Numbered from the stretch's first letter, positions 3,794 through 59,508 are shown. The stretch: DNA of 64,000 nucleotides from an uncultured cyanobacterium (GCA_963744145.1 CAVUSO010000001.1:5216001-5280000); one strand, 5' to 3'. The notes: generated by a model from the sequence alone, not told the origin. Translations and numbers: made by a program.

Positions 3794-3805
3794 CTAATAG
3801 TTGCA

Positions 3806-5071: not shown

Positions 5072-5084
5072 TGTATATTGATCT

Positions 5085-5240: not shown

Positions 5241-5325
5241 CTCTAACAGATCAACCTCAGATTAAGTGCAATTTCATAGTTAATTGGTATTAGGATATTC
5301 CCGTTAATTTTAGATGTCATAAATG

Positions 5326-5481: not shown

Positions 5482-5484
5482 AGG

Positions 5485-8481: not shown

Positions 8482-8656
8482 CTGACCATCATCATTGAGA
8501 AAAATTTATCGATTTTGCCGACAGATCCAATTATAGTTATAATTCAATATATCCACAAGTAGAAAAACATCACTTGACCATCTCCCATTCTCAACTCTTT
8601 CTACAACATCATCGTGTTTTTGTAAATTAGTAATTAGTTAAAAAAAGGTAAAATTT

Positions 8657-9991: not shown

Positions 9992-10007
9992 ATTCAGGTA
10001 GAACCAG

Positions 10008-10117
10008 ACCTAACCCCCCAACCCCCTTCCCTAGGAGGGAAGGGGGAGTAATTAAGATGATTAAATTAATTAGAGATTTAATAGAATTAATTCTGGCTCC
10101 CCTTTCCTCTGAGGAGA
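10008..10117. repeat. REP-like double-hairpin element
   Basis: ccccttccct-agg-agggaagggg plus second hairpin; homologous to the element split by IS4 at 23646-25496. Confidence 0.6.
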
Positions 10118-10208
10118 GTTCATCATGGTGAGGTGGACATTTTAGGTTCAGTGTGTTTTTGACCTCCTTCCATAAAGTGTCTGAAGAGCCCGGAATATTA
10201 AACTTTAC

Positions 10209-10913: not shown

Positions 10914-10931
10914 TGTAAATTTTAGATTTTA

Positions 10932-11660: not shown

Positions 11661-11674
11661 CAGGCTTGTATATC

Positions 11675-13609: not shown

Positions 13610-13737
13610 GGTCAACAGCGTTTTCAGTCAGAATGTTAGATTATTAACCAAATACCTTTTAATTAATAAAAACTCAGCTCAACAAAGCTTTGTTTTCAAT
13701 GCCCATGTTAACGTATTACCAAAACGCCCGAAAAAAT

Positions 13738-22397: not shown

Positions 22398-22976
22398 ATG
22401 ATCGTAGCCAAAAACAAACCCACAAACTTAACCCCTGAAGAATACTTTACTTGGGAAGAACAGCAACTAGAAAAACACGAACTGATCGACGGTCAAATTT
22501 ACGCCATGACTGGCGGTAGCAAAAATCATAGCCTCATCTCCGTCCGACTCATTACTTTATTCGCTAACCATCTAGTAGGAAGTGGCTGCGAAACAGGTAA
22601 CTCAGACCTGAGAGTTAATATTGCCCAAACTAATAACTATACCTATCCAGATGTCAGCGTCACCTGCGACGATCGCGATCGAACCACAACCCAATATATT
22701 ACATATCCCTGCTTAATTGTTGAAGTGATCTCAAAAAGTACCGAAGCATACGATCGCGGTGGCAAGTTCAGAATGTATCAAAATAATCCAGTCTTAAAAG
22801 ATTACCTATTGGTTAGTTCCACTGCGATCGAAATGGATTTGTATCACAAAAATGATGCAGGACAATGGATGATTATTAACTATGGAGAAAGCGACAGGAT
22901 TGAACTAAAAAGCATCAATCTCAGTTTCGCCATTGAACAAGTTTATCGGGGTCTAAACCTTACCCCAGAATCTTAA
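22398..22976 (+). CDS. Uma2 family PD-(D/E)XK endonuclease-like protein
   Basis: HELIDGQIYAMTGG, YTYPDVSV, LIVEVISKST, YDRGGKF. Confidence 0.9.
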   Translation: MIVAKNKPTNLTPEEYFTWEEQQLEKHELIDGQIYAMTGGSKNHSLISVRLITLFANHLVGSGCETGNSDLRVNIAQTNNYTYPDVSVTCDDRDRTTTQYITYPCLIVEVISKSTEAYDRGGKFRMYQNNPVLKDYLLVSSTAIEMDLYHKNDAGQWMIINYGESDRIELKSINLSFAIEQVYRGLNLTPES

Positions 22977-23676: not shown

Positions 23677-25394
23677 CTATCCATTAGTCACATCTTTCTT
23701 AACAATCCTGAAACTATTACCCCGTAACGGTTTCAGGATTAATAGTAATTAAGCTACTTGACAAAATGATCCAGAATATGATCTGGTAACGAGTTGGAGA
23801 GTAATAACTATACACCAGCCAATTTAAGTACATAATTTCCAGGTAGCTGCAATATCATGTAATCTTCTTAATCCTCTCCAAATCGTTTTTACTCCCGGTT
23901 CACCATCACCTTTTCGACCTAAAAATCCCCCCAACATCGCGATCATACGGACGGCTTCTTGTAAAGAAGGTGGAGTTTTTGGAGGGATAGGATTTTTAGT
24001 AATAGTCGCACATAAAGATTGCCATTCATGAGTTTCTAAAACCTCAGCACTCGATGCCATTGGATTCGTTCTAGCCGAATATGTAAGCCATAATAAACGC
24101 CAACTTACAATCGTATAAGTCGCTAAGGCCATTTCGATTCTTCGCACGGTTTCTAGTTGTAATTTCTCAATTCCACACCCACTTTTTAGAGTGTAATGAT
24201 AGCGTTCTATTAACCAACGGTATGTATACCATTCTACACATTGGACTGCCGCTGCTAAGTCATTAACTTCCAGACTGGTAATTAACAACCAACTAATCGG
24301 TTTAACTCCGGGTTCTGGGTTTTCTTCTAATGCTAGAATTACTTGTAATTTGACTGGTTGGAGTTGCTTTCGCCCGATATGGTGTGCTGGAACTTGAATC
24401 TCTAAAGTGGCGAATCGTACTGTCAGAACGGCAGTTCTAGCTTGATGTGTCGGATTTCTTTTGACTTCTATACTTAATTCTCCTGCTGCGGGAGTTTGAC
24501 GGATCGCTTGATGTAAATATTGGGCAGAATGGTCTACTTTCCGATTATGAGTACCGCGAATTAGTAAATGGGAATTGGCGGCACGAGGCTGGCTAAATAG
24601 CTCAAATATGTCAGCTTCTGAATCCGCCACGGTTACTACTTGAATATCACTTGGGATTAAATTTTCTGTAACTTTTAATCCTGCCAACCAGCGGTGGCTT
24701 TCCTTTTCTTTAATTTCTCTTTCCCGCCGTTTTTTGGCTATCCCCAAATTCGCCAGCTCTCTAGTCCATACCTGTTGCTCAATTATCCCTAATGGTACTC
24801 CTGAAGTGGTTACAGCTAGCGTTGAATGTACTTTTATTCCGGCTGATTTTCGGTGATCTAAATAACCAATCCCTCTCGTGCTAGGATGATTGGTTAAATC
24901 GATATTTGTGGTATCTTGTATTGCTAATACTGTCTGATGCGCTTTAATTCTTTCGATCGTGCTGGCTGTATGTGCCTGTCGGATATCTGATGGCTGAAAA
25001 TAGGGCGACTTCCACAAGTCATAAGCCGCACTAGTAGCTGCACTATTGCCACAAGCTTGTGGGACGCTGCTGGTTGGTTGTGCGGCTAAATCTTCCACCA
25101 ACCGAATTAATCGCTTGTTTCTCCTCGCATCTCCCAAGTCTACTGTGGCTAATTCTTGCTCTGCCCACTTTTCCATTTTTTCCTTCCACCTTACTTCTTC
25201 TTTTCCTCTCTATACTATACTCATCAAGACTTTTCTTCTGAGCGACCACTGCTGTATAGCTCACTCCTAGTCCGCCCGCAGCTCTCAATTGCATATTCTG
25301 TGCAATTAGTCAACTCCACCTGCGGCCATGAATCCTGAAACCGTTACTAGGTAATAGTTTCAGGATTGTTAAGAAAGATGTGACTAATGGATAG
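23677..25394 (-). mobile_element. IS4-family (IS50/Tn5-like) insertion sequence
   Basis: 64-bp terminal inverted repeats (62/64 identical) starting CTATCCATTAGTCAC; 10-bp target duplication CCCTTGTAGG at 23667-23676 and 25395-25404. Confidence 0.92.
23824..25176 (-). CDS. IS4 family transposase
   Basis: WAEQEL..LGDARR, IQDTT, VADSEAD, YTYRWLIERYHYTLKSGC (YREK), LGGFLGRKGDGEPG. Confidence 0.93.
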   Translation of the reverse strand: MEKWAEQELATVDLGDARRNKRLIRLVEDLAAQPTSSVPQACGNSAATSAAYDLWKSPYFQPSDIRQAHTASTIERIKAHQTVLAIQDTTNIDLTNHPSTRGIGYLDHRKSAGIKVHSTLAVTTSGVPLGIIEQQVWTRELANLGIAKKRREREIKEKESHRWLAGLKVTENLIPSDIQVVTVADSEADIFELFSQPRAANSHLLIRGTHNRKVDHSAQYLHQAIRQTPAAGELSIEVKRNPTHQARTAVLTVRFATLEIQVPAHHIGRKQLQPVKLQVILALEENPEPGVKPISWLLITSLEVNDLAAAVQCVEWYTYRWLIERYHYTLKSGCGIEKLQLETVRRIEMALATYTIVSWRLLWLTYSARTNPMASSAEVLETHEWQSLCATITKNPIPPKTPPSLQEAVRMIAMLGGFLGRKGDGEPGVKTIWRGLRRLHDIAATWKLCT

Positions 25395-30579: not shown

Positions 30580-32091
30580 ATGGCGCTATTACCAGAAGAA
30601 CTGCCCAAATGGTATACGGTTGAAGAAGAAAAAGACAGAGGTTGGACGCCAAAAACTGAGGATATTATTGAAGGTACAGGTGATCCAGTTACGATCAATG
30701 CTTGGGATACTAAAGGAAGCTATTGCCCTAAAAATGCTGATGCTTACACAATACGTTTGGACAAACTGCAAATTATTAGTCCGATTCAGGTTGGTGGGGG
30801 TAGTTTTCCAGAAGGAGGTATTTTACCCGCCCAAATTGGCGGAGTTCCCTGCATTCCCGGTTCTAGCATTAGGGGAGCATTACTAAGCTGGATTCAGGTA
30901 AAATGGGCTGAGTTAGACAGTGAGGAACAAGTTTTTTGGCAAAGTTTGCTAGCTAGCGATCGCACTCATTGGCTACCCCGCAAAATTCGCTTTGAAACCA
31001 TTTTACTAAAAAACCTCAAACCTTATCCATTACACGCTCAACAAAATTGGCAGTTGTTTGACCAAAAAAGTAATAAATTAGGCATTCAATGGCAAGTATC
31101 ACCTAAACCTCCGAGTCCGAATTACGATAAATTTTGCTTGCAAGTTTTACTGAAAAATGTTTGTAACAACGAACAAAAAACTTGGCTGGAAAAACGCCTA
31201 CAAGAAATGCTGCAATGCCAAGGAATTGGACGTGGGAAAGCATCTGGATTTGGTCGATTAGCGCCCAAAATTCCATCAGGAACTTGGGAAATTCAACTCA
31301 CTGGAATGAAACCTTGCATTCAAAGTCACAATCCAGGTAGAAAGCAAACCGGACAATATCGCTGGACTCCCCAAGTATTGCGTGCTAATTTACGAGGTTA
31401 TTTTACTAGATTAGCGTTGTCTTTGTTCTCGCATCAAACTGCGTTGGAACTGACTAATAAAATATTTGGAGGCTTGGGTTGTCCAGCTAGATTAATTTTA
31501 ACTAGCTACTTGCAATCGATTCCCAGAATGATCAGCAAAAGTTCCAAGGATTATACCAATATTCCGGCTAGTCAAGCCGAATCAACTTGGGTAATTAGCG
31601 TTGATTGCAATAAAGAATTTAAGCCCTTAATTGGTGGATTGCTTGTTTTAGCCAGTCGTTTAGGTGGACTCGGCCCAGGTTGGCGTAGACCTCCTCATAC
31701 TTTACAACGTTTTCATGGTTTTCGGGGCAGTGAATTTACTGTTACACCAGGTAATTTGGAAGAACCTTTAGATGAGTTAATTAATTGTTTGCGAAGATTG
31801 ATTACCCAATTAGGTGAAAATTATAATTGGGATGCGATGTCACCTCCGACAGTCGTTCCTGGTTGTCTGATTAGTATTTGGAAGGGACAAGTAAATCAAT
31901 GGCATAATATCGTGCATAAGGTTTGCAGTACAACAGCACAAAATCGTCCCCAATGGTGTGGAAGTTCTGAGAATCGACCATCAGGTTATGCAGTGCGACA
32001 ATATCAGGATTATTGTTTGATTACTGTATTTGATCAAGCTGTAGAAACGACTCTGACAAGTCAAGGTTTTAAGAGTGTATGGCCATGTTGA
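30580..32091 (+). CDS. cmr6: Type III-B RAMP protein, Cmr6-Cmr1 fusion
   Basis: RAMP 1: PIQVGGG, IPGSSIRGAL, GIGRGKASGFG. RAMP 2: LRANLRGYF, IFGGLG, LGGLGPGWRR. Confidence 0.75.
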   Translation: MALLPEELPKWYTVEEEKDRGWTPKTEDIIEGTGDPVTINAWDTKGSYCPKNADAYTIRLDKLQIISPIQVGGGSFPEGGILPAQIGGVPCIPGSSIRGALLSWIQVKWAELDSEEQVFWQSLLASDRTHWLPRKIRFETILLKNLKPYPLHAQQNWQLFDQKSNKLGIQWQVSPKPPSPNYDKFCLQVLLKNVCNNEQKTWLEKRLQEMLQCQGIGRGKASGFGRLAPKIPSGTWEIQLTGMKPCIQSHNPGRKQTGQYRWTPQVLRANLRGYFTRLALSLFSHQTALELTNKIFGGLGCPARLILTSYLQSIPRMISKSSKDYTNIPASQAESTWVISVDCNKEFKPLIGGLLVLASRLGGLGPGWRRPPHTLQRFHGFRGSEFTVTPGNLEEPLDELINCLRRLITQLGENYNWDAMSPPTVVPGCLISIWKGQVNQWHNIVHKVCSTTAQNRPQWCGSSENRPSGYAVRQYQDYCLITVFDQAVETTLTSQGFKSVWPC

Positions 32092-32094
32092 AAA

Positions 32095-32338
32095 ATCAGG
32101 CGATCGATCTTTATAGTGTACTAAAGTGCGCTTCCACCTATCCTCAATTTCCCCAAATTGCGAGGCTGACGAAAAATGGCTGAAACAACGCAAATTGGTT
32201 CTAAGCTTCGCTACCTTACGGAGCATGGGTTTCAGGCGTTTAGACAGGTGCAAGTAAGGAGGTTTGTATTAACAAAATCGGTCAGCCTCGCAAACTGCCT
32301 CTGGACATCAGGCAGGATAAGAGGTTGAATAGGGGTAG
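32095..32338 (+). promoter_or_regulatory. CRISPR leader
   Basis: Non-coding stretch abutting the undegenerated first repeat; 13-bp inverted repeat ttgcgaggctgac (32158-32170) / gtcagcctcgcaa (32281-32293). Confidence 0.7.
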
Positions 32339-33749
32339 GTAGCGACCTTCATTAGAAGGTAAAGGTGTTGAAACTGCCACCAAAATTGGTATTAGCTGAA
32401 TCAGACGGATTAGGTAGCGACCTTCATTAGAAGGTAAAGGTGTTGAAACCCAAGACTGCTTTATGGTGGATAAAAGCATCAGAAATATGTAGCGACCTTC
32501 ATTAGAAGGTAAAGGTGTTGAAACTGCCAGCATTATTAAAAACAACAATATATAACTCAGGTAGCGACCTTCATTAGAAGGTAAAGGTGTTGAAACGCAT
32601 CTGCCGGAGTTTAGAAAATGGTTGAGATTAACATAGTAGCGACCTTCATTAGAAGGTAAAGGTGTTGAAACGCATCAGACCACACTACATCAGCAGGATT
32701 AGTAACCGTAGCGACCTTCATTAGAAGGTAAAGGTGTTGAAACAATTCCTCCATAATTGAATATTCTTGGAAATCCTCGTAGCGACCTTCATTAGAAGGT
32801 AAAGGTGTTGAAACTGTCACGAGACTGGTACTTACCATAAACGTTGTCATGTAGCGACCTTCATTAGAAGGTAAAGGTGTTGAAACCTTATCGAAGTCGT
32901 CAGGTAGGATTGAAGTCTCAAAAACGTAGCGACCTTCATTAGAAGGTAAAGGTGTTGAAACCATCCTTTTTAATTCCTTGTTTGTTTAATTCGGTGTATA
33001 GTAGCGACCTTCATTAGAAGGTAAAGGTGTTGAAACAATTTAACAAAATTTTCTTTGTGTTCATCGGTTAGGTAGCGACCTTCATTAGAAGGTAAAGGTG
33101 TTGAAACTAAACAAAAATGTCCAATAAATATAAATTTTAACGTCACTTGTAGCGACCTTCATTAGAAGGTAAAGGTGTTGAAACCTATGGGTAAAGGAAA
33201 ATCGACCCCATTATGGAACTGGTAGCGACCTTCATTAGAAGGTAAAGGTGTTGAAACATAAAATGTAATTGCGTTTTTGGTTTCTTTTTAGGCTTAGTAG
33301 CGACCTTCATTAGAAGGTAAAGGTGTTGAAACCGTAAATTAGGATTTACATGGATTTCTCCTTGATGTGTAGCGACCTTCATTAGAAGGTAAAGGTGTTG
33401 AAACTATATAGCTATATATGTCTTTCCCCCTCCAGTAAAGTAGCGACCTTCATTAGAAGGTAAAGGTGTTGAAACAAGATTTCCTTGGAATGTTTATACT
33501 GCTCATAAGTAGTAGCGACCTTCATTAGAAGGTAAAGGTGTTGAACCCGTTAAAATGCCCTATACACCTATAGAATTACCAGGTAGCGACCTTCATTAGA
33601 AGGTAAAGGTGTTGAAACAAGAACAAGGTTTAAGAAAGAATTTATATCTAGAAGGTAGCGACCTTCATTAGAAGGTAAAGGTGTTGAAACTCTTTCTGTA
33701 CTACATCAAATACAAGAATCTCTTTACTGTAGCGACCTTCATTAGAAGG

Positions 33750-35206
33750 CAGGGTAAGAGCATCTCAATTAGGCTTGACACAAGGATTAAGAAGGATCTA
33801 ATGTAGACTCAGAGAAACAAGAAAGGAGGATTTGGAGCATATAATTATTATCCATAGCAGCGCGTTTACTTTTCTGGCGTAAACTGCGTTTGTAAGTTGA
33901 CTCGCGATTAAGAGCGTTGAGAGCTAATCGTCTGAGCAGAGAAAAGTTACGAGGACTGTGAAAAGAACGAATGCGACAGCTATCTTCAAAAAAAGTACAA
34001 TCTAAAGTCCAGTGTGCAGAATTTTCGATTTCCCAATGTTGACGAATAGCTCGACCTATGAATTCAGCATTGTTGTCTAAAGAAGTAAGATAGTATTGAG
34101 TCTCGCAAGTAGTTTTGTTCCAAAGATGACGGATACGATGAATGATGACAATACTTTTTAAACCTGCCCATAATTTGGGTTGGTAAAGGTCAGGAATGGC
34201 CGTAATAGGGAGCACCCAAACTTCACGAATTTCCACCCGATGATGCCCTTTCTCAATCCGTTTGTCATGAGTGAAATCAATTCCTGAAAAATTATTTTTC
34301 TGTGCAGTTTGGAAGAATTGTTGTACCTGATTATGTAAAGTTGGATGATTGGCTTTAAGTGTCAGAATATAATCAGCTTTTTTATCAATAATCTTTTGAG
34401 CAATTTCGGTTTGGGTCCCCATCGCATCAATAGTAATAATTGAGCCAGCGATATCAAGTAACTCTAGTAATGCTGGAATAGCTGTAATTTCATTGGATTT
34501 ATCTTGGACTTTCATTTGTGCTAAAACTAATCGTTGTTCACTAGCCCACGCACTAATCAAATGTAATGCTGATTGTCCTTGATTTCGGTCATAGGAACCT
34601 CTGACAGTCTTCCCATCTATGGCAATTACTTCTCCTCCCATTTGAGTAACTAAGGTGTTTACCCAAGCTTGAAAACATTGCTCCAATTGGTTGGGGTTAA
34701 TACTTTCAAATACTCGACGAAAGGTATCATCTGAGGGAATACCATTGGGTAATTCTAAAAACTCTTCTAGCCAAATTTGTTTACTAATCCCATAATTCTC
34801 AATGTCTTCCCAGCCTTGTGCTCCAGCTATTATGACCAGAATTGCCATCACTAAAATGTCTATCAATAAGTGTTTTTTTGTTCGGTTTACTCTCGGGTCT
34901 TCAACATCTTCAAAATGCTTGACTAAACTCTGTTGTATTTCCATCAAGTCAGCTACTACTTGGTTTTTCCTAGCAGAATGGGAGTTTTGTTTAGCATTAG
35001 CTATATTGATATCGAACCCTTGAGACATTTGAATATTCCTGGAGATTATGAGTTGGACGGTATAGTTTTTCACCTACCACTCTCTATGCTCTTTTGTCAA
35101 CTATTTTCTCTACCAGATTTGTGATGTTCTGATCTCGATGGCTATATTTCATATTTGATGAAAATATTCTGTATCCTCGGTGACAAAATTAGATGCGCTA
35201 ACCCTG
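33750..35206 (-). mobile_element. ISAs1-family insertion sequence
   Basis: TIRs CAGGGTAAGAGCATCT / AGATGCGCTAACCCTG (14/16); 10-bp target duplication CATTAGAAGG (33740-33749, 35207-35216). Confidence 0.95.
33787..35028 (-). CDS. ISAs1 family transposase
   Basis: DPR, GIPSDDTFRRVF, IAIDGKT, KSNEITAIP, ITIDAMG, RQHWEIEN..HWTLD. Confidence 0.95.
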   Translation of the reverse strand: MSQGFDINIANAKQNSHSARKNQVVADLMEIQQSLVKHFEDVEDPRVNRTKKHLLIDILVMAILVIIAGAQGWEDIENYGISKQIWLEEFLELPNGIPSDDTFRRVFESINPNQLEQCFQAWVNTLVTQMGGEVIAIDGKTVRGSYDRNQGQSALHLISAWASEQRLVLAQMKVQDKSNEITAIPALLELLDIAGSIITIDAMGTQTEIAQKIIDKKADYILTLKANHPTLHNQVQQFFQTAQKNNFSGIDFTHDKRIEKGHHRVEIREVWVLPITAIPDLYQPKLWAGLKSIVIIHRIRHLWNKTTCETQYYLTSLDNNAEFIGRAIRQHWEIENSAHWTLDCTFFEDSCRIRSFHSPRNFSLLRRLALNALNRESTYKRSLRQKSKRAAMDNNYMLQILLSCFSESTLDPS

Positions 35207-36054
35207 CATTAGAAGGTAAAGGTGTTGAAACATCATTAATTTAATGACCGCTTCTGGAGTTGGGTAATAGTAGCGACCTTCATTAGAAGGTAAAGGTGTT
35301 GAAACAATGTTTTATTGCTATTGTTTTGTTCGGAAGTTCAATGTAGCGACCTTCATTAGAAGGTAAAGGTGTTGAAACTACAGATATCTATATCTAGATA
35401 CTATGGTAGATACCTGTAGCGACCTTCATTAGAAGGTAAAGGTGTTGAAACTTACGGAAATAGGGTTCCGATTGTTCCCCGTATTGAGTAGCGACCTTCA
35501 TTAGAAGGTAAAGGTGTTGAAACTTCATATCCTCTTTAGGAGGTTGAATTGACCAAGGCAGTAGCGACCTTCATTAGAAGGTAAAGGTGTTGAAACTGCG
35601 CGAAATTAACCGCGATTTTTTGAGCAGTTTCTTGTAGCGACCTTCATTAGAAGTAAAGGTGTTGAAACTAGTAGTAGGGTTTTCCCGTCAAAAGATTTTC
35701 TGAAGTAGCGACCTGTAGCGACCTTCATTAGAAGGTAAAGGTGTTGAAACCCTTCATTACTACGCTTCAGAAGTGCAGTAGTATCTAGTAGCGACCTTCA
35801 TTAGAAGGTAAAGGTGTTGAAACACTATTGGCTAAATCTTTGGTTAAGCAATGGAGCATGGTAGCGACCTTCATTAGAAGGTAAAGGTGTTGAAACCAGC
35901 CAATCATCGGATTGCAAGTCTTACCAGTCCATAAAATGTAAAAATGTTGAACCTTTCTAAAGAAAAGCTATATCAATTAGCTATTTGTTGATCGCCACTA
36001 TCAAACTCGTGGCATCGGCACAATCTTAATAAATTAGGCAAAATTGTTATATAT

Positions 36055-36232
36055 CAATACAGTTCAGTTAAGGATGTTTTGGGATATCCCGGCGCAGAAA
36101 AATGGTGAAGTATTCCGATATAATATTAATCATTTTGAATCAATAATTACCGCCCGATGCTGCCTACAGCACGCTAAACGTTCGCGCAGCGTGCCGTAGG
36201 CGATCGCCCCTACAGTTAACTGAACCGTATTG
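36055..36232. mobile_element. MITE (same TIR family as 29938-30522)
   Basis: TIRs CAATACAGTTCAGTTAA / TTAACTGAACCGTATTG; 10-bp target duplication TGTTATATAT (36045-36054, 36233-36242). Confidence 0.88.
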
Positions 36233-36363
36233 TGTTATATATCTAGAGGGATTAAATCTCTATACACTTAGAAACAATACAAGGGTAAGAGCCTTTTACG
36301 AACGTAATTTCTGATGCTGCCTTCTCCAGCCTATTAACTAACAAATTTACCGAACCCACTTAC

Positions 36364-36798
36364 TCAAACCTGAGTATTACACTTATGAGCATCTTTCAAC
36401 CGCATTGTCCAAAACTGAATCGTATCGGAAATTTCCATCAACAAATCAGTTAACACAACTTGCTGATTAAAAGTCAAATCTCGAAAGCGATTCTGAAACT
36501 GTTCTGTCGTCATCCTTTCGTTAATTTGCAAATCATTACCGACAATTCTACACAAAACTACCCGCGCTACACCCCAAGCAAAATAACGCTTTTCGTCATC
36601 AGAACCCGTTGCAGCATCGGGCATTCTACCGCCTAATAATGCCTGCGATCGCGACATCGCCCAAAAACGTTCTACACCCCAACTAGCAACATAATCCGCA
36701 ATTCCACTTGCCGCTCCTTGCCAATCCTCTAATTGATTTTCGCCAGGTTTGAGCAATTGAAAAACTTCTCTATCCAATTCATAAGAACTCACTGGCAT
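36364..36798 (-). CDS. cmr5: Probable Cmr5/Cas11 small subunit
   Basis: 144-aa helical protein directly after cmr4; ASGIADYVASWG and C-terminal FW. Confidence 0.65.
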   Translation of the reverse strand: MPVSSYELDREVFQLLKPGENQLEDWQGAASGIADYVASWGVERFWAMSRSQALLGGRMPDAATGSDDEKRYFAWGVARVVLCRIVGNDLQINERMTTEQFQNRFRDLTFNQQVVLTDLLMEISDTIQFWTMRLKDAHKCNTQV

Positions 36799-36801
36799 AA
36801 A

Positions 36802-37596
36802 TCACTCCTTACTATCAACCAACGCATCAGAAATAATCACCCGTCCATAACCTACACTCCACAATCCTCCAAGATAATGTTCTTGAATTAAAAAATTGTT
36901 CCATTTCTCTAACCCTTCCACGTTTCCCCGTGTAGTCCAAGTAATCATAAACACTGACCCTGGGGGAAAACCTTCAACTGCAAATAAATGGTTGACTAAA
37001 TTTCCTTCTTCATCAGCTTCATCTTTGAGGCTAACTCGCGGTTGTCGTACTAAGCCCATATCGACTATTAAATTAATGCTAGTATCTGGTACAATAATTC
37101 GTCTGTCTTTTGGTATTTCTACTGGCGCTGGCAAATCACCTTTATAATGGCTCACCTGGGTTAACTTTAACCAACGGAGATAAACAGTTTTATTATTAAG
37201 TTGCGAGTCCGTAATGTAAACCTGACTACGCTCATTAACAATATTTAGAAGTGGTTGTTGGGATAATTGGCGAAAGCGATTTAACCAACTCGGACAACTC
37301 ACCCACCAATTACCATATCCCAATACATGAACTGGCCACCACACAGGCCACCCCCAACCCAAAGAAATATAGCCTGGAGAAATATCATTATTCTCACCGC
37401 CAAACCAATTTTTTACGAGTGCTTGATAGTCAGGTTCACTTTTAGCGTGTTCTCGCAACGCCCCCCGCAAAGAACTGCCGGGAATCGCCGGACTGCGATC
37501 GGGTAATCGAAATATAGGATTATTATTACCGCGACTGCTACTATCCGCACCCCCAATATGTACAGGTTCTCGACAAATTAACCATGCAATAGCCAT
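36802..37596 (-). CDS. cmr4: Cmr4 (Cas7-group RAMP)
   Basis: EPVHIGG, IPGSSLRGALR, RVSL, LFAVEGFPPGS, LGGLWSVGYG. Confidence 0.85.
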   Translation of the reverse strand: MAIAWLICREPVHIGGADSSSRGNNNPIFRLPDRSPAIPGSSLRGALREHAKSEPDYQALVKNWFGGENNDISPGYISLGWGWPVWWPVHVLGYGNWWVSCPSWLNRFRQLSQQPLLNIVNERSQVYITDSQLNNKTVYLRWLKLTQVSHYKGDLPAPVEIPKDRRIIVPDTSINLIVDMGLVRQPRVSLKDEADEEGNLVNHLFAVEGFPPGSVFMITWTTRGNVEGLEKWNNFLIQEHYLGGLWSVGYGRVIISDALVDSKE

Positions 37597-37602
37597 TTAA
37601 AC

Positions 37603-38595
37603 TCACTCCTGAAATAACCACAAATGTCCGTAACCCAAAACGTGGCGGTTGTAGGAATCCCGCACAGGTTCGGATTTCAACAAAGGTACAGTTCCTTCCC
37701 ATAGATACACCGCACCTGCGGGAGTCATCCATTCTCCGGGAGTTAATACCGATACCCGCTTTTCTGGATCGTGACGATCTCTAACTCGTTTCCAAGATTG
37801 CCAGGGAACCCCAGTATCAGCAGCATAAGCTTTGATTGGGAATGGTGGGACGGGACAGGATACTTGGCGATCGCAATGTGTGGCTGATGACATATCGTTC
37901 CGTTGCCACAACGCCCCAGTTAATAAGACTGCACCAGTGGATTTTGTACAATCTACTGTTAACCAATTATCCTTTACTTCTTTTACAGGTGCGATCGCGA
38001 CTGGTGTACCTCCTGCGCCCAAAAAACCCCAGTCAGGTAAAGTGCAATCTCCTATCACCTTCACCAAAATCGACCACCGAGGCAACATTAAAGTGGTCAT
38101 TTCTGCAAAAAAGCCCCCCTCATCTTTAACTTGAAAATCTTCGCGGCTATTGTGACTTAAAGTAAGTGTTTCCCAAGGGAACTTTTTCAGAAGGGGATTT
38201 TTGAACTTTCCTGCCTGCCAAAATACCTTTAAAATATAACCACTAATTAAATATTTGCCACCGATGATTTCAATTGGTTGTGTTTGATGTTCCGATCGCA
38301 CCTGCCATTGTTGATCTCGCCATTGTAATCGAAAAATTTCTTGGGGTAGTTCTTCTGTTTTAGATTCCAACCGATAAACAGGCAAAGGCAATGTAACGTA
38401 AATATCGGTTTCTCCAGCATACCACCAAAATGGCCCCCAAATTTGGCAATTCGATGGTAAATTCAAACAAGCTGCCAGGTGATGACCGTTCGGTGGCCAA
38501 CGACAGCCTACCTGTCCGCTATTTTGTCCTACCGGAGTGAGATTTCCGATCGCTACCGTCCCTGCTGGCGTAATAGAATACCATCCACTCATCAT
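37603..38595 (-). CDS. cmr3: Cmr3 (Cas5-group RAMP)
   Basis: WPP, IWGPFW, EGGFF, LGAGG, PAGAVYL, C-terminal LGYG; ATGA overlap with the cas10 stop. Confidence 0.8.
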   Translation of the reverse strand: MMSGWYSITPAGTVAIGNLTPVGQNSGQVGCRWPPNGHHLAACLNLPSNCQIWGPFWWYAGETDIYVTLPLPVYRLESKTEELPQEIFRLQWRDQQWQVRSEHQTQPIEIIGGKYLISGYILKVFWQAGKFKNPLLKKFPWETLTLSHNSREDFQVKDEGGFFAEMTTLMLPRWSILVKVIGDCTLPDWGFLGAGGTPVAIAPVKEVKDNWLTVDCTKSTGAVLLTGALWQRNDMSSATHCDRQVSCPVPPFPIKAYAADTGVPWQSWKRVRDRHDPEKRVSVLTPGEWMTPAGAVYLWEGTVPLLKSEPVRDSYNRHVLGYGHLWLFQE

Positions 38596-40799
38596 TGTCT
38601 CCCTGTTATCAATTCCACCCACTTCTGACGCTGTTGCGCTTGTCTTGCCAAAAAAGCTTTCAGACTAATCCAATTAATCCACCACTGCCAATCTTTGATT
38701 TCAGGCTCAAATTCCGATTTTGCTACATCCAGAACTTGTTGCCAAGTCAGAGAAATTCCAACACTAGCCCACAGAGTTTCAATCAAATCTCTTACTGTCA
38801 AAATAGAAAGCTCTTGCAATCGACTGCTTTCCAAATAAGAAAGTAGTTTTTCCCAGCGATTTAGTTCAGTTTTTTGAGTATTAATTGGTTCCACAGGCAT
38901 CAACAAATTCCATAATGGCCAAGGACAAACCCAATCTAAAGATTGTCCGCTATTAAACAAAACTTTCACACAAACTCGATTTCGCCCTTTATTTTTAGCT
39001 TCCTTATATGCTTGATTCAATCCTCGATGCCACAAAGATTGAGGAATTCTCCGTTGGGCAATTACTAATCCCAAACTGAAATTCATCTTCTTTCCAGGTA
39101 TCGGGTAAATTTGGGAATTGTACTGCACCCAACCATCTACAGGCGGATCTAAAGGTTGTGTTAGGGTTGAAATTTCTCCTGTCCAAAGCGAATGCAAATC
39201 ACTGGTAAGGGAAATGGTTTCAGTTAAGGGTCCTAATAACAGAAAATCATCGCCTCCAGCAAAAATAACTTTACCATGATGAAGTTCTTCTGTTAAAGGA
39301 TAAAGCAATTGATTCCACAATCCAAATAATACCGACAGGTCAAGGATATGGGGTAATTCCATCTGTCTACATTGAGCGGTCGCGATCGCTGGATTAATCG
39401 CTAAATTATGTTGTTTGATCATTTCCGAATTAGGATGCCATCGCGACCAAAGTAATTTTAATGTTTCATATTGTTCTCCCGATAACCACTTGCCCATATT
39501 ATCCCCATCACCACGCCATCCCACAGTCCATTCAATGGTACTTTCCCAACCTTGTCCTACATTGTTTTCCCAATCCTCAATCATTATTTCATCTTCAATA
39601 TTCCGCTGTTCTAAAACTCGCGGATGAGCAAAAGAAGGAGATTGTTTATCTACTTTTGGCATTCCCCAAATATAAATTGGTTTCTTGTTAAGATAATATT
39701 CATGCCAAACTTCAATTTCTTGATTCCATGTATATGCTTCGATAGAAGTTGTCACCCATGCTGCTGCTACTGCTGTTCGATCTGGAAAGCGACCCCAAGG
39801 ACATTCGGGAGGATTATAACCCCACAAACGTTTTAAAGTTTGGTTGATAACTTCTGGAACAGAAGCCAAACGTTTCACTAATTCGATGCTATTAAGACGA
39901 TCTGTAGTGGAAAACAATCCTTGGAATCTACTCCTTTGAGTTGCCCTTTCCCACCAATTATTGATCTGGTCGTCAGGTAATCCCCAAGTTCCACCTTGAT
40001 AAAACAAACGTAAACCGGGATGCCAGATTGACAAACAACCATCGCTCGGACTGGTCCGACCGCCCCACCAAGTACCCGACCATTCTCGACCGATTTTGCG
40101 CGACTCAATTCGCTGATGTAACCTATCAATATCTTCACTGACAGTTGCAATATTAAGAGCAGTTTCTTCAGCGTAAACCGACCAGAGATATTGATTGTCG
40201 GAATGAATAACGCGCCATCCTTGACCACCTAGCAAGTGGGGGTCTTCATCGATTGCAGTATCTTCTAAAGCTTTCAAAAAGCGTCTCCACTCGTTTTTAA
40301 TAACGGCTTCTCTTTCAGCTAACCAATAATCATTATTAGGGTATAATGCGGTAATTACATTAGGTAATTCTGCCTGCCAAAATCTCTCTGAAACTGCATT
40401 ATTTCCGTTTAACCAATTGACTAATTCTGAATTTTGGTGTAAAGGTAGTAAAACTTTACCACCTGCTTCTTCCCAGCGATAAATTAGAACTGCTGAAAGA
40501 TAGTGACATAACCAGGAAGCTACCGCCCAATCTCTCAATCTTTGTCCACCACCTAAAAAGGTTTGTACCGGACCGAATGTTAGTACCGCTACTCGATTTA
40601 AGTTGTCAAAATCGGTTTCAGCAATTTGGTTACAAGCTTCCTGAGATGCCCCACCACCCCACCAAAATTGACTTTGTATATGTTCAGAATCTTGCCATTC
40701 ACCGCTAACTGGATGACAAGACAAGTTAGGGCTTACATCGGGTAAGGGTTGCTGGGGATAAATTTGCTGTTGTTTGGATAACCAGGCTCTTATATTCAT
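38592..40799 (-). CDS. cas10: Cas10/Cmr2 without HD domain, intact cyclase palm
   Basis: GPVQTFL...RDWAVASW, GDGDNMGKW, IFAGGDDFL; short N-terminus with no HD nuclease motif. Confidence 0.92.
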   Translation of the reverse strand: MNIRAWLSKQQQIYPQQPLPDVSPNLSCHPVSGEWQDSEHIQSQFWWGGGASQEACNQIAETDFDNLNRVAVLTFGPVQTFLGGGQRLRDWAVASWLCHYLSAVLIYRWEEAGGKVLLPLHQNSELVNWLNGNNAVSERFWQAELPNVITALYPNNDYWLAEREAVIKNEWRRFLKALEDTAIDEDPHLLGGQGWRVIHSDNQYLWSVYAEETALNIATVSEDIDRLHQRIESRKIGREWSGTWWGGRTSPSDGCLSIWHPGLRLFYQGGTWGLPDDQINNWWERATQRSRFQGLFSTTDRLNSIELVKRLASVPEVINQTLKRLWGYNPPECPWGRFPDRTAVAAAWVTTSIEAYTWNQEIEVWHEYYLNKKPIYIWGMPKVDKQSPSFAHPRVLEQRNIEDEIMIEDWENNVGQGWESTIEWTVGWRGDGDNMGKWLSGEQYETLKLLWSRWHPNSEMIKQHNLAINPAIATAQCRQMELPHILDLSVLFGLWNQLLYPLTEELHHGKVIFAGGDDFLLLGPLTETISLTSDLHSLWTGEISTLTQPLDPPVDGWVQYNSQIYPIPGKKMNFSLGLVIAQRRIPQSLWHRGLNQAYKEAKNKGRNRVCVKVLFNSGQSLDWVCPWPLWNLLMPVEPINTQKTELNRWEKLLSYLESSRLQELSILTVRDLIETLWASVGISLTWQQVLDVAKSEFEPEIKDWQWWINWISLKAFLARQAQQRQKWVELITGRQ

Positions 40800-42277
40800 T
40801 GTAGAATTGTCAAGATTTGTAAGATGCGATCGCGATATTGATCAGACCGATTTTTGACTTCATTGGATAGATCAGCTAGTTGCACAACGTATTCTAACCA
40901 ATTGACAGCAATTTGTGATGGATGTGCTGGGTCATCAACTCGATTATTTAGTTCGCGAGTCTTAATATCTAAAAGGCGATCAATACTATCTCCCATCAAA
41001 CTGTGATATAGTTTGTTTCTTAATGTAATAAATCCCAATTTTTCTTGTGGATTATTTCCCAATTTCCAATTATTAATATAAAAACAGTTTTTAAACTTGT
41101 CCCATTCTGGTGACACAATGGGAGTAATGGGAGTAGCCTGAAAATTAGTTATTTTACCACTATGATTAGTGAAATCAAACAAGCCGTCAGTTAACAAATT
41201 TGTAACAATCGAGTTTATACTGCATCGTCCAATTTTTCCGTCCTTTGTATCATTATTAAAAATTAGTTCCTGTCCATGCCATTGATAATTACCATTTCCT
41301 TGCTTTTCTACAACTAGGAGTAAAGCCAATTCTAAAGCTCCAGCTATTCTAAGATACCAGTGCATCCACTGACTGCGATCGCGAAAAGCTTTTTCACTCC
41401 ACAAAGCAATACTTATTCGCTCAATAATGCTATCTCGTCCCTCTATATTTCTTCCTTCTAAATTTAAAGAAACTGATCTGTCAAGAAAAGAGAAAGACTC
41501 AGCTAAATCTTGATATCTCGGATGACACAAATCTAGTAGCTTGAAAGCACCACTAAAATCTTGAATTTCCAATAATTCCCGAATTTGAGGCACTTTAAGT
41601 CGCCACTGCCAATGCTTACCGGGATGGGTATAGCAGTCTATTTCTTGTTCGGAAATATAAACAAAATCTATATTATTACCAGCCAGCTTTTGTTCAATAC
41701 CCCAAAGATACAACGCACCACTTAAAGCAGGCGTACCGCTATTATGCTGTACAATAATTTTTTCAAGTAGAATTCTATCTCCTTCTTCTGGTTTAAAATA
41801 TATTGAGTTATTTTCAAACACAATATACTTACCTAATAAAGGATCAACAGATTCTGCCATTCCTTCCCAATCAGCCGCTCCATTACGTATGCCTGGGTCA
41901 ACATCTAGACGGATAGGATAACAGATAATATTTTGGCTTTGACACCAAGCTAATAAAATCTTTTCCCACCAAATGCCATCTAAGGTAATAACACTGCTCC
42001 ACCCTTCTGGGGTGTCATTCCAATTTTGTATCCATCGAATTTGATCTGTTAGGATAAAAGCAAACAAAATATCCGCATCAGCCGATAAATTGCTGTAAAG
42101 CTTTTGTACCAAAGGAAAACTAACTCTGTCTAAGTCTTGAATAAAATTTTTCTCATTAAGAAGAGCCTGTTCCTGGAAATCGTTTAGAAAATATAGTCTT
42201 TCTAACTTCTTTAACCCATCTTCTCCGTCAACTTGGATATCACTATTACCGAGAACCTGCACAATTAGCTTAGTCAT
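40796..42277 (-). CDS. Putative CARF-HEPN (Csm6/Csx1-like) type III ancillary ribonuclease
   Basis: N-terminal VLGNSD and IVQHNSGTPAL (CARF-like); C-terminal RNKLYH (RxxxxH); stop overlaps the cas10 start. Confidence 0.65.
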   Translation of the reverse strand: MTKLIVQVLGNSDIQVDGEDGLKKLERLYFLNDFQEQALLNEKNFIQDLDRVSFPLVQKLYSNLSADADILFAFILTDQIRWIQNWNDTPEGWSSVITLDGIWWEKILLAWCQSQNIICYPIRLDVDPGIRNGAADWEGMAESVDPLLGKYIVFENNSIYFKPEEGDRILLEKIIVQHNSGTPALSGALYLWGIEQKLAGNNIDFVYISEQEIDCYTHPGKHWQWRLKVPQIRELLEIQDFSGAFKLLDLCHPRYQDLAESFSFLDRSVSLNLEGRNIEGRDSIIERISIALWSEKAFRDRSQWMHWYLRIAGALELALLLVVEKQGNGNYQWHGQELIFNNDTKDGKIGRCSINSIVTNLLTDGLFDFTNHSGKITNFQATPITPIVSPEWDKFKNCFYINNWKLGNNPQEKLGFITLRNKLYHSLMGDSIDRLLDIKTRELNNRVDDPAHPSQIAVNWLEYVVQLADLSNEVKNRSDQYRDRILQILTILQ

Positions 42278-42489
42278 TAAGATTACCCTGAAAAACAAAT
42301 TTTAATAGCTCTACCGAACTTGATCTGTAATAAATCGCTGAAATCCTTATTTAGTCAGCTTTAGCGGGAAAATTGATTAAAATGAACCTATCAGAATCTA
42401 AAACTTATGCCAAATGAGGCTTTCGGCTGTTTCACTTGGTTCTTAAAGCGCAGGTTCGGTAGAACCCAATAAATTGTTGCCTAGATTCT

Positions 42490-42768
42490 GATGTCTATGG
42501 CACGCTACGTGATCGCCTATGGCACGCAATGCGATCGCGAGAGCGTACCGTAGGCAATCGCCCCTACAATTAACTGAACTGTATTATACTATAGCCAATA
42601 CTCCAATGTCATTAATACTTGGTCTTCTGAACTGAGTTTACCAGCTCGTTTACCCGTTCGCGTAGTCGAAGAGGGCGTAGCCGAAAGGTATGTAGTTGTG
42701 ATCAGGGCGCTGAAGCGCTACTACATACCTAAGAATAATATATTTTCTTCTCTAACTGAACTGTATTG
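42490..42768. repeat. Cluster of SDR/REP-like repeats and two orphan MITE right ends
   Basis: Tandem ctatggcacgc..gatcgc units; taactgaactgtatt near 42571 and 42753. Confidence 0.55.
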
Positions 42769-42822
42769 AGTTATAATAGGAATAACCTTGCTACATTTGT
42801 CAATCAAATTATCATAATTGCA

Positions 42823-44025
42823 ATGTTTAACTCTAACGAAACTCCCTTAACTGAAAAAAACGAACGTTTACGTCGTTGGAGACTAATTCTTGGGGGTGAT
42901 CAAGCAGATGGAATTTGTAACAATACAGGGGATGGTCAAGGAGCAGGTTTTAGCTTAAGTAGCACAGATAAAGCGATCGATGGTGTTCTCAGTGCGCTGT
43001 ATGATAGCGATCGCGCAGGTGGATTAGGTAGTTCAGCTCCAAATGTAGCTCGTTGGTTAGGAGATATCCGTCAATATTTCCCCACCTCGATCGTGCGGAT
43101 TATGCAAAAAGATGCTTTAGAACGACTACATTTAAGACAAATGTTGCTTGAACCTGAATTACTGGAAGCAGTTGAACCAGATGTGCATTTAGTCGCTGAT
43201 TTACTAGCAATTAGCAATCTTATTCCTAGCAAAACTAAGGATACAGCACGTCAAGTAGTGCGTCGTGTGGTTGAACGATTACAGCGTCAATTAGCTAATC
43301 CCACTCGTCAAGCAATTATGGGAAGTCTAAACCGTGCTATTCGTAATCGTCGTCCTCGTCATAATGAAATTGACTGGAATCGCACTATCCGTGCTAACCT
43401 CAAACATTATCAGCCAGCATATCGTACTATTATCCCAGAAACTCGGATCGGTTATGGACGTAAACGTTCATCCCTGCGTGATATTATTCTTTGTATTGAT
43501 CAAAGTGGATCAATGGCAACTTCTGTAGTTTATTCTAGTATTTTCGGTGCAGTTTTAGCATCTTTACCCGCAGTTCAAACCCGAATGGTGGTTTTTGATA
43601 CTTCAGTGGTAGACTTGACTGAAGATTTACAAGACCCGGTTGATCTCCTCTTTGGTACTCAATTAGGTGGTGGTACGGATATCAATCGAGCCCTAACTTA
43701 CTGTCAGAATTTAATCCAACGTCCCCAAGAAACTATTTTGGTACTTATTAGTGACTTATATGAGGGTGGTAATCAAACTGAAATGCTCAAACGAGTAGCA
43801 ACATTGGTCTCATCTGGAGTTCAATTTATTGCTTTATTAGCTTTAAATGATGATGGGGCTCCCTCGTTTGACCATAATGTTGCTACCGCATTTGCTAATT
43901 TGGGAATTCCCTCTTTTGCTTGCACTCCTAATCAATTTCCTGATTTAATGGCAGCAGCGATTAATCGTCAAGATATTAATCAATGGGCTGCAAATCGTGA
44001 TCTGGTTACAACTCGCAGTAAATAA
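42823..44025 (+). CDS. VWA domain protein (YehP/CoxE-like)
   Basis: RRWRLILG, MIDAS IDQSGSM, FDT, GGGTDI, LISDLYEGG. Confidence 0.85.
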   Translation: MFNSNETPLTEKNERLRRWRLILGGDQADGICNNTGDGQGAGFSLSSTDKAIDGVLSALYDSDRAGGLGSSAPNVARWLGDIRQYFPTSIVRIMQKDALERLHLRQMLLEPELLEAVEPDVHLVADLLAISNLIPSKTKDTARQVVRRVVERLQRQLANPTRQAIMGSLNRAIRNRRPRHNEIDWNRTIRANLKHYQPAYRTIIPETRIGYGRKRSSLRDIILCIDQSGSMATSVVYSSIFGAVLASLPAVQTRMVVFDTSVVDLTEDLQDPVDLLFGTQLGGGTDINRALTYCQNLIQRPQETILVLISDLYEGGNQTEMLKRVATLVSSGVQFIALLALNDDGAPSFDHNVATAFANLGIPSFACTPNQFPDLMAAAINRQDINQWAANRDLVTTRSK

Positions 44026-44095
44026 TAATTTGGTTACTCGTTCTCATGGTATAATTAATCAGCAAAAATATCTAGTCATTCAGTTTATTGATCCG

Positions 44096-44653
44096 ATGAT
44101 GAACTCTGAACGTAAGCCAAGCAACTCTGATGAAGAATCACAATCTTATCGAACTATTTATGAAGGCGATCGCGCTTTACGACAATTTGCTGAACGACTA
44201 TCTGAACATTTAGAAAATGATCAATTAGTGCAGCAAACCACTGAAGAGTTAAGAAGTTTTTTAAATGTTGATCGAGTCGTGATATATTACTTTTATCGAG
44301 AGTGGAAAGGACAAGTTACCTTTGAAGCTTTAAGCAATTTCCAATTATCAATTTTTGGTTCAACTGGACCAGATGGTTGTTTTAATGATGAATATGCAGC
44401 CCTGTATAAAGCGAGAAGAATTCGGGCGATCGCAGATATTGAAACTGAGCCGATCGCAACTTGTCACCGAGACTTTCTGCGGAGTATTCAAGTGCGAGCT
44501 AATTTAGTAGTACCAATTCTCACCACCCGATTGTGGGGATTATTAATTGCCCATCATTGTCAAAATCCTCGTCACTGGATTCAATCGGAGATCGAAGTAA
44601 TGCAACAAGCAGCGCATAAAATCGAAACCGCACCAACAATTTTAAAAAATTAA
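44096..44653 (+). CDS. Stand-alone cyanobacteriochrome-type GAF protein
   Basis: DRVVIY, PDGCF (DXCF), TCH, VRANLVVPI, LWGLLIAHHC. Confidence 0.75.
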   Translation: MMNSERKPSNSDEESQSYRTIYEGDRALRQFAERLSEHLENDQLVQQTTEELRSFLNVDRVVIYYFYREWKGQVTFEALSNFQLSIFGSTGPDGCFNDEYAALYKARRIRAIADIETEPIATCHRDFLRSIQVRANLVVPILTTRLWGLLIAHHCQNPRHWIQSEIEVMQQAAHKIETAPTILKN

Positions 44654-58798: not shown

Positions 58799-59422
58799 TT
58801 AGGTGATGGGTAGTGGGGAATGGGTAATGCTTTTGTTATACTCCCCATCCCCGAGTTCAAGGGTCAAACCGCGATAGACTTGCTCGATCGCCAAATTGAG
58901 ATTGATGCTTTTTAGTTCTATGATGTCGCCTGCTTGATAATTAATAATAATCCATTCGCCAGCATCGTTCTTGTGATACAAGTCTATTTCAATGGAAGTG
59001 GAGCTAACCAGTAAATAGTCCTTTAAGGCGGGATTATGGCGATATAGCCTAAACTTGCCGCCTCTGTCGTAAGCTTCTGTACTTTTGGATAAAACTTCAA
59101 CGATCAGACAGGGGTAGGTGAAGTAGTTGGGGGTGCTTTTGTCGCGATCGTCGCAGGTGACGCTGGCATCTGGGTAGGTATAGTTTTGAGTTCCAGCAAT
59201 GTTGATCTTGATATCAGAATTGCCGGGTATGCAGTTGCTGCCATCTAAATGAGCATCGAACAGGGCGGTAAACCGGATAGCAATGCGACCATGATTTACA
59301 CTGCCACCGCTCATAGCATAAACTTGGCCGTCGATATATTCATGCTTTTCGAGTTGCTGTTCTTCCCAAGTAAAATATTCTTCGGGGGTAAGAGGTGGGG
59401 CGTTATCTTTTGTGGTGATCAT
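58799..59422 (-). CDS. Uma2 family endonuclease-like protein (paralog of 22398-22976)
   Basis: LTPEEYFTWEEQQLEKHE identical to the first copy; YTYPDASV, VEVLSKST. Confidence 0.9.
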   Translation of the reverse strand: MITTKDNAPPLTPEEYFTWEEQQLEKHEYIDGQVYAMSGGSVNHGRIAIRFTALFDAHLDGSNCIPGNSDIKINIAGTQNYTYPDASVTCDDRDKSTPNYFTYPCLIVEVLSKSTEAYDRGGKFRLYRHNPALKDYLLVSSTSIEIDLYHKNDAGEWIIINYQAGDIIELKSINLNLAIEQVYRGLTLELGDGEYNKSITHSPLPIT

Positions 59423-59508
59423 TTTTGGAGTGATAGGTAATGGCATAATGTCAAAATCCTTTAAGGTACAAGATATTTGGGCTGTATTGGATTTGAAGAG
59501 GTCAAGAA

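Follow-up and report, generated by a model that had tools for sequence, protein, structure and literature searches.

How does a type III CRISPR-Cas system behave when its backbone subunit no longer carries the residues with which it should slice the target RNA? In the textbook scheme, cleavage of the bound transcript by the Cas7 backbone serves as a timer, turning Cas10 off. The question is raised by a III-B (Cmr) locus in a 64,000-nucleotide stretch of DNA from an uncultured cyanobacterium (GCA_963744145.1, CAVUSO010000001.1:5216001-5280000), hereafter called the window. There, csx1, cas10, cmr3, cmr4 and cmr5 are five closely packed minus-strand genes, accompanied by a putative cmr1-6 fusion gene and a CRISPR array. 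A preliminary description of this DNA had proposed a complex devoted to signalling only. Sequence and predicted folds tip the balance, in our judgement, towards this reading, i.e. a complex that senses RNA and supplies the RNase Csx1 with cyclic oligoadenylate, slicing neither RNA nor DNA.

Residues at the slicing position of Cmr4

The translation of cmr4 reads HIGGADSSSRGNNNPIFR, and the stretch around the site of interest is PVHIGGADSSSRGNNNPIFRLPDRSPAIPGSSLRG, in which the codon of Asn25 is att on the plus strand and AAT in the coding sense. Four kinds of alignment agree that Asn25 occupies the position of the catalytic aspartate, which bears out what the preliminary description had read at this codon. 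In phmmer searches against PDB chains, Asn25 pairs with the aspartate of Methanocaldococcus jannaschii Csm3 (GTDNPVIR, 4qts), of a Cas7 paralogue of Synechocystis III-D (ATDNPII, 8bmw) and of Staphylococcus epidermidis Csm3 (AIDSPVV, 7uzw). Another partner of Asn25 is residue 33 of Streptococcus thermophilus Csm3, an asparagine in 6ifk_G, which we take to be mutated at Asp33 and thereby cleavage-dead. The profile built from 23 family members aligns position 26 with Q27 of Pyrococcus furiosus Cmr4 (4wnz_A), so that position 25 corresponds to D26, and position 25 with the aspartate of GNvDLPIQR in 9arw_C. The equivalence with P. furiosus Cmr4 is drawn from these sequence and profile alignments together with a fold match, the AlphaFold2 model of the window protein (predicted local distance difference test, pLDDT, 85.3) reaching a Foldseek template modelling (TM) score of 0.75 to the Cmr4 of Cmr-beta (6s91_G). 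Residues 17-24 form a loop of low confidence in the model (pLDDT <50); in P. furiosus Cmr4, the catalytic loop (residues 17-27) is described as disordered in the accessible text of PMC4333402. When the Cmr4 N-terminus is compared as a single sequence with PDB chains, its best match is 9wxh_D, in the first RAMP domain of a 1235-residue protein of the TIGR03986 family, which reads QANAIIR in the aligned region and is likewise devoid of the aspartate.

The substitution extends to the relatives of this Cmr4. Among 105 homologues, 99 span position 25, and none has an aspartate or a glutamate there: the residue is asparagine in 83, serine and arginine in six each, glutamine in two, and threonine and leucine in one each. 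The conservation among orthologues that the preliminary description proposed to check is therefore that of a non-acidic residue (99/99), most often asparagine. Since the leucine belongs to one distant homologue, five residue types are seen within the family, while N24, P27 and R30 never vary and N26 seldom does (N 95, S 4). A varied position amid invariant neighbours fits the loss of constraint on a former catalytic residue.

A second slicing residue is affected as well. Profile alignment places D86 of P. furiosus Cmr4 opposite Trp81 of the window protein, a tryptophan in 100 of 101 homologues, in a column that holds aspartate or glutamate in 87 of 92 representatives bearing the catalytic aspartate. 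As far as the accessible text of PMC4333402 goes, D26A abolished cleavage by the P. furiosus protein and D86A 'substantially reduced' it, and mutants of H15, E32, E151, E152, E227 and E228 had no apparent effect. As judged from the alignments, both acids whose mutation impairs slicing in P. furiosus are replaced in the window protein, by Asn25 and Trp81, respectively.

The complex might still slice through a relocated or non-canonical site, built around Asp18, Asp33 or Glu208 of Cmr4 or Glu78 of Cmr1-6, and would then be an ordinary Cmr complex that merely lacks an HD domain. Indeed, Asp18 (D 95, E 3, A 1 of 99), Asp33 (98/99) and Glu208 (103/103) are invariant or nearly so, as is Glu78 of the Cmr1-6 fusion, whose own slicer position has no aspartate (...EGGILPAQ...). 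The flexibility of loop 17-24 could bring Asp18 to the slicing site, and the related III-Bv systems are proficient in interference. However, S. thermophilus Csm3 carries an aspartate equivalent to Asp18 in its HIGGSD motif and yet needs Asp33. This weakens the caveat of the preliminary description that the aspartate of GADS (Asp18) could substitute for the missing one, although Asp18 is conserved and lies in the same flexible loop. Besides, the P. furiosus neighbours of the Asp33 and Glu208 equivalents (E32, E227 and E228) belong to the residues listed above as mutable without effect (PMC4333402), both P. furiosus residues that matter are replaced, and position 25 drifts. We therefore regard a displaced slicing site as unlikely.

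Cyclase, effector and their linkage

Cas10 has kept its signalling motifs. GGDD (residues 515-518), whose retention had been claimed in the preliminary description, and GDGDNMG (430-436) are invariant in all 32 sequences compared, i.e. the window protein and 31 orthologues. The domain assignments are supported by Pfam (Cmr2_N 4.1e-11, palm2 2.4e-12) and PADLOC (Cas10b, 1162.8 bits). Cmr2_N starts at residue 71, which leaves about 70 residues ahead of the first palm domain, and residue 58 onward aligns to residue 236 onward of the 1004-residue Cas10 9l7c_B. From these two observations, there is no N-terminal domain of the size of an HD domain, as had been proposed, and the short N-terminus is common to the window protein and the 31 orthologues. 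The zinc-finger position, said to read SPSDG, is a less simple case: the string is present at residues 250-254, but its alignment to the zinc-finger position was not achieved. The only well conserved cysteines are C98, C333, C610 and C625, and since none of them is part of a CxxC pair, the canonical four-cysteine zinc finger seems to be missing from the sequence.

The 'adjacent effector' of the preliminary description is, by sequence and fold, a CARF-HEPN RNase strictly linked to cas10. Csx1 has no match in Pfam or NCBIfam; its PADLOC matches (CARF1--CARF_HEPN, 9.8e-11, residues 54-258; Csx1, 1.3e-6) span residues 54-259. The CARF motif QHSSGTPA is conserved, the window protein reading QHNSGTPA at residues 184-191, and in the HEPN motif R427-NKLY-H432, all sequences share N428 and H432, and 28 of 29 have R427. 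The AlphaFold2 model (pLDDT 88) has Csm6 and Csx1 structures as its top Foldseek matches with a probability of 1.00, i.e. Enterococcus italicus Csm6, S. thermophilus Csm6', Thermus thermophilus Csm6 and Csx1-Crn2. The TM scores are no higher than 0.38-0.45, which is not surprising for a protein of several domains. That the top structural matches are enzymes bound to cyclic hexa-adenylate (cA6) is at most a hint as to the ring size of the messenger. Signalling by S-adenosylmethionine-AMP (SAM-AMP) was set aside, the linked effector being of the CARF-HEPN type and not CorA.

A scan of a genome collection showed that the csx1-cas10-cmr3-cmr4-cmr5 set, the cmr1-6 fusion and the array recur in 35 loci, almost all of them labelled as cyanobacterial. 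In 32 of these, the gene directly upstream of cas10 is csx1; the contigs of the remaining three (L011, L014 and L021) end before csx1, which is thus present in 32/32 loci with upstream DNA. A cmr3 orthologue, defined as a tblastn match covering at least half of the query, adjoins cmr4 in 32/35 loci. The cmr1-6 gene is found in 30/35, with the array on its strand, directly downstream of it in the three loci that were traced (the window, L002 and L019). The unit of cmr1-6 and array follows the direction of the csx1-cmr5 operon in some cases and runs against it in others. The long open frames and the many invariant residues across the 35 loci argue for purifying selection.

When 656 open reading frames (ORFs) of the 35 related loci were clustered, no widely linked gene emerged beyond the six core genes. 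The best accessory clusters are a reverse transcriptase (RT)-Cas1 (7/35), Cas2 (8/35), an unknown 860-residue protein (8/35) and a WYL protein (4/35). RT-Cas1 and Cas2 adjoin some members of the family (e.g. L002:15025-17022 and L002:12145-12564, respectively) and are absent from the window; the presence of RT-Cas1 suggests that spacers may be taken up from RNA in those members. The 860-residue protein, which has no Pfam match, is encoded upstream of csx1 (e.g. L006:2549-5131) and is also absent from the window.

Taken together, the features predicted from a signalling-only complex are found at the sequence level: the catalytic aspartate and the D86 equivalent are lost, Cas10 lacks an HD domain and has invariant cyclase motifs, and a CARF-HEPN protein is linked. 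From this we infer the absence of cleavage, the synthesis of cyclic oligoadenylate, the activation of Csx1 and the persistence of the signal. In the mechanism that we propose, Cas10, Cmr3, several copies of Cmr4, Cmr5 and the Cmr1-6 fusion would assemble with CRISPR RNA (crRNA) from the adjacent array. The complex would base-pair with an invader transcript, cutting neither the RNA at 6-nucleotide intervals nor DNA, and target binding would activate Cas10 to make cyclic oligoadenylate. The messenger would then bind the CARF domain of Csx1, whose HEPN site would degrade RNA as the sole destructive output. Since such a complex could not destroy its own activator, the signal would have to end by another route: decay of the target through Csx1 or host RNases, degradation of the messenger by the Csx1 CARF domain, or ring nucleases whose genes lie elsewhere in the genome, none being linked to the system within the window.

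Several points weigh against the sensor reading. Asp18, Asp33 and Glu208 are conserved in Cmr4, and with Asp18 in a flexible loop, they may form part of a relocated active site. Plasmid interference in vivo is documented for the related Synechocystis III-Bv system (accessible text of PMC6546367), although the Cas10 of that system keeps an HD motif. A Microcystis III-B system that has the gene order of the window, and is possibly a member of the family, is reported in the part of PMC11855584 available to us to protect Escherichia coli from T4 without Csx1. The array of the window is broken by an insertion sequence (IS), and the signalling-only behaviour of the family is a prediction from sequence and fold. 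Finally, the Cmr4 type of the window (E <1e-60) occurs in 8 of 401 sampled genomes of the phylum, its own genome included, and is disrupted in three of the eight. Two of these have a TAA stop inside the gene (G370:C1:3332989-3333753 and G071:C1:1691788-1692552), and in the third, it is in two pieces about 5.6 kb apart (G200:C1:1020920-1027257), which suggests decay or insertion in some lineages.

The locus, its array and its surroundings

All six proteins of the locus (Table 1) are named by PADLOC models. Two of these models, Cas10b PDLC02053 and 'Cmr5gr11, new subfamily', fit almost over their full length, which indicates that the variant is already present in profile collections. The curated NCBIfam models for Cmr2 (43.4 bits against a cut-off of 79.4) and Cmr4 (52.8 against 87) score below threshold, from which the family appears divergent. 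The Pfam model Cas_Cmr3 also remains below its cut-off (0.0086), and the cmr5 product has no match in Pfam or NCBIfam. Sequence and fold identify the subunits as true Cmr proteins. The csx1 stop overlaps the cas10 start by 4 nucleotides, and the true start of cmr3 may lie about 10 codons downstream of the annotated GTG. In the RAMP fusion, the Cmr6 match covers residues 86-375, and the Cmr1 part is our reading.

Table 1. Features of the III-B locus, with positions counted from the first nucleotide of the window (aa, amino acids; nt, nucleotides)
Feature	Position	Strand	Details and basis
csx1, Csx1/Csm6-type CARF-HEPN RNase	40796..42298	-	500 aa from TTG; orthologues begin at Met8
HEPN motif R427-N-K-L-Y-H432 of Csx1	41003..41020	-	conservation among Csx1 orthologues
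cas10/cmr2, HD-less	38592..40799	-	735 aa; Pfam Cmr2_N 71-175, palm2 430-610; PADLOC Cas10b PDLC02053
GGDD cyclase motif, Cas10 residues 515-518	39246..39257	-	invariant in 32/32 sequences
cmr3 (Cas5 family)	37603..38622	-	339 aa from GTG; PADLOC Cmr3 3.8e-9 and 7.3e-9
cmr4 (Cas7 backbone subunit)	36802..37596	-	264 aa; Pfam RAMPs 2.5e-22; PADLOC Cmr4 1.9e-21
Asn25 codon (AAT) of cmr4, site of the catalytic Asp (P. furiosus Cmr4 D26)	37522..37524	-	alignments, homologue counts
Trp81 codon of cmr4, site of P. furiosus Cmr4 D86	37354..37356	-	profile alignment
cmr5 (Cas11 small subunit)	36364..36798	-	144 aa; PADLOC 'Cmr5gr11, new subfamily' 4.9e-70
CRISPR array	32339..35896	+	36-nt repeat GTAGCGACCTTCATTAGAAGGTAAAGGTGTTGAAAC, 27 copies with <=1 mismatch plus degenerate copies
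ISAs1-family transposase gene within the array	33787..35073	-	NCBIfam transpos_ISAs1 3.3e-124; repeats on either side
RAMP protein, read as Cmr1-Cmr6 fusion	30580..32091	+	503 aa; Pfam RAMPs 4.1e-12; PADLOC Cmr6 6.1e-18

The array lies directly downstream of cmr1-6 and has its orientation, opposite to that of the csx1-cmr5 operon. Its repeat, which reads GTAGCGACC...GTTGAAAC on the plus strand, is found nowhere else in the 7.7-Mb genome of the host. It combines a 5' hairpin with an A/U-rich single-stranded tail, and the hairpin is supported both by folding and by compensatory stem changes across related loci (CCTTC/GAAGG, CTTCC/GGAAG and CTTTC/GAAAG). The locus has no Cas6: its proteins gave no match to one in NCBIfam, Pfam or PADLOC, and no relative of the four host cas6 genes occurs in the 35 related loci or in two plasmid loci.

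These features bear on another way in which target RNA could be removed. Besides sensing, one may envisage that the complex is an RNA-binding platform on which the bound target is cut by recruited host RNases (RNase E or J), so that shut-off would be outsourced. The analogy comes from crRNA maturation by RNase E/J in Synechocystis III-Bv and from type VII, where an inactive Cas7 presents RNA to Cas14, a precedent for an inactive Cas7 served by a separate nuclease (accessible text of PMC12669027). The absence of Cas6 and the resemblance of the repeat to the RNase E substrate described for Synechocystis CRISPR3 point in the same direction. A physical link to host RNases is, however, purely hypothetical here, and the strictly linked Csx1 already supplies an RNase output, which makes the platform improbable in our view.

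The array also invites the idea of a decaying remnant that no longer defends its host. The ISAs1 element divides it, leaving about 19-20 repeat units towards cmr1-6 and about 10 towards cmr5, no adaptation gene lies within the window, and a blastn comparison of the array part 32300-33790 with 50,697 phage records returned no match for its spacers. The stop codons and the split seen in Cmr4 genes of this type in the phylum sample add to this picture. Against it, none of the six genes is broken, Cas10 and Csx1 have invariant catalytic motifs (save for the HEPN arginine, 28/29), and 26 repeat copies are identical. Moreover, the element lies downstream of the 19-20 repeat units in the inferred direction of transcription, and four cas1 genes are present elsewhere in the genome. 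Decay of the whole locus appears to us very improbable.

The host genome holds many CRISPR-Cas loci, with four cas1 genes, four cas6 genes and at least six separate matches to the Cas10 palm-2 domain. One of the cas1 genes (C1:1654046-1654906) lies in a 570-residue open frame that is possibly an RT-Cas1 fusion. For the region 32300-42298, no RNA dataset is listed, and one DNA run from a soil metagenome contains it.

Divergently from csx1, the window encodes a VWA CoxE-like protein (6.3e-52) and an overlapping GAF-domain gene (42766-44653, plus strand); since the VWA protein is found in 0/35 related loci, these two genes probably have nothing to do with the CRISPR module. Further genes of a defence-like or mobile kind occur in the window, for a 953-residue STAND NTPase with the domains EAD4, NACHT and NCC-H (932-3793), for two putative nucleases of the Uma2 family (22398-22976 and 58799-59446) and for one Tn5-type transposase (23824-25176). 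PsbU, XisH and a DUF3120 protein are encoded in the window as well.

Related Cmr4 families and known systems

A profile search of 1.84 billion representative sequences gave 656 matches at E <= 0.001, of which the best 150 were examined. The resulting set of 153 sequences (148 new identifiers, P0078 and P0083, and the added P0001, P0105 and Synechocystis 6803 P0106) includes 125 that span the loop and 28 fragments that do not. An acidic residue occurs at profile positions 24-26 in 93/125, so that the aspartate is the norm, and is missing in 32/125. A G-N/T signature is common to thirty of these 32, which make up three families: that of the window (RGN[NR]NP), one reading 'GNLNLI' and that of the Synechocystis 6803 type (EGNLLGI); the remaining two are isolated changes of aspartate to asparagine. 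In a FastTree tree of 106 sequences of 240-440 residues, 19 having been dropped on length, the 18 G-N sequences form one group with a Shimodaira-Hasegawa (SH)-like support of 97, in a place where long branches meet. The slicer state needs three changes on this tree versus a mean of 18.5 after shuffling. As judged from alignments and tree, the loss of the aspartate is not peculiar to the window and is common to a clade of three Cmr4 families, including that of Synechocystis 6803 CRISPR3.

The host genome itself has a second III-B locus without the aspartate, about 145 kb away (L062, G000:C1:5097000-5115000, ORFs at 2601-13713). It encodes a Csx3-AAA protein, a WYL protein, a 590-residue Cas10, Cmr3, a Cmr4 reading GNLNLIFRD, Cmr5 and a Cmr1-6 fusion. 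Its Cas10 is HD-less, with the Cmr2_N region at its very start. As a candidate ring nuclease, the Csx3-AAA protein could potentially serve the system of the window too.

We give about an even chance to a broader evolutionary proposal, in which a cyanobacterial Cmr lineage made up of the three families gave up slicing, and the branch of the window gave up the HD domain as well. That branch would have become a pure latched sensor, whose only outputs would be cyclic oligoadenylate and a hard-wired Csx1, and in which signal termination would be uncoupled from cleavage.

One of the closest described systems is the III-Bv system of Synechocystis sp. PCC 6803 (CRISPR3 on pSYSA), whose effector proteins (Sll7085-Sll7090) include Cas10 (Sll7090), Cmr3, Cmr4 (Sll7087), a Cmr5-like protein and a Cmr1-6 fusion. 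The two systems share the core order cas10-cmr3-cmr4-small subunit-large RAMP fusion, the fusion being putative in the window, and a locus devoid of cas6. Sll7087 also lacks the aspartate, reading EGNLLGIAR with a leucine at the slicer position, and it falls into the same Cmr4 clade as the window protein (SH-like 97 in the FastTree tree, with the reservation on long branches made above). However, Sll7087 is only 27.6% identical to the window Cmr4 and keeps the D86-equivalent aspartate where the latter has Trp81. The two Cas10 proteins match different PADLOC Cas10b models, and that of Synechocystis 6803 has 979 residues with an N-terminal LLHDP (...LLHDPALK) HD motif, whereas the window Cas10 is HD-less. 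Finally, a csx18-cas1-cas2 unit, and not csx1, precedes cas10 in Synechocystis 6803. With the canonical III-B Cmr complexes (P. furiosus, T. thermophilus and Cmr-beta), the window shares the subunit families, the Cmr4 fold and the palm architecture of Cas10. The canonical Cmr4 has the aspartate of xVDxPIQRE and that of D86, Cmr1 and Cmr6 are separate, and many canonical Cas10 proteins bear an HD domain.

Other natural systems have dispensed with Cas7 catalysis in different ways. In III-G and in III-H, the accessible text of Makarova et al. (2025, PMC12669027) reports that the catalytic aspartates of Cas7 are not conserved, as a case of reductive evolution. It describes an inactivated cyclase, an absence of CARF/SAVED effectors and an apparently active HD domain with predicted DNA cutting. 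The window shares with these subtypes the loss of the Cas7 aspartates and is otherwise their converse, with intact cyclase motifs, a CARF-HEPN effector and no HD domain. Type VII (Cas5, inactive Cas7 and Cas14) is comparable in that the non-catalytic Cas7 of a backbone related to type III binds the target RNA and leaves its destruction to another nuclease. It has neither Cas10 nor a messenger, and Cas14 acts within the complex, whereas the nuclease of the window is predicted to be a free, messenger-activated Csx1.

What the window Cmr4 has by nature is also a substitution of the kind introduced on purpose, to trap uncleaved target, into engineered slicer-dead complexes (Csm3 D33A/N and Cmr4 D26A), which are laboratory mutants of otherwise slicing systems. 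Such complexes show a prolonged output of cyclic oligoadenylate. An HD-less Cas10 is mentioned for Synechocystis III-D in the accessible part of PMC9676260. In the passages covered by our literature search, we found no statement that III-Bv or other cyanobacterial Cmr4 proteins lack the slicer aspartate. The same search gave no description of the combination of no slicer residues, no HD domain, intact cyclase motifs and a hard-wired CARF-HEPN effector.

To conclude, the sensor reading lends itself to a direct test, since the related aspartate-less Sll7087 sits in the genetically tractable Synechocystis 6803. If it is true, the system would be a natural sensor of RNA that is programmable, does not cut and amplifies its output, and thus of interest for detecting RNA. 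It would also mean that the messenger arm can by itself sustain adaptive immunity, and would pose the question of what ends the signal.

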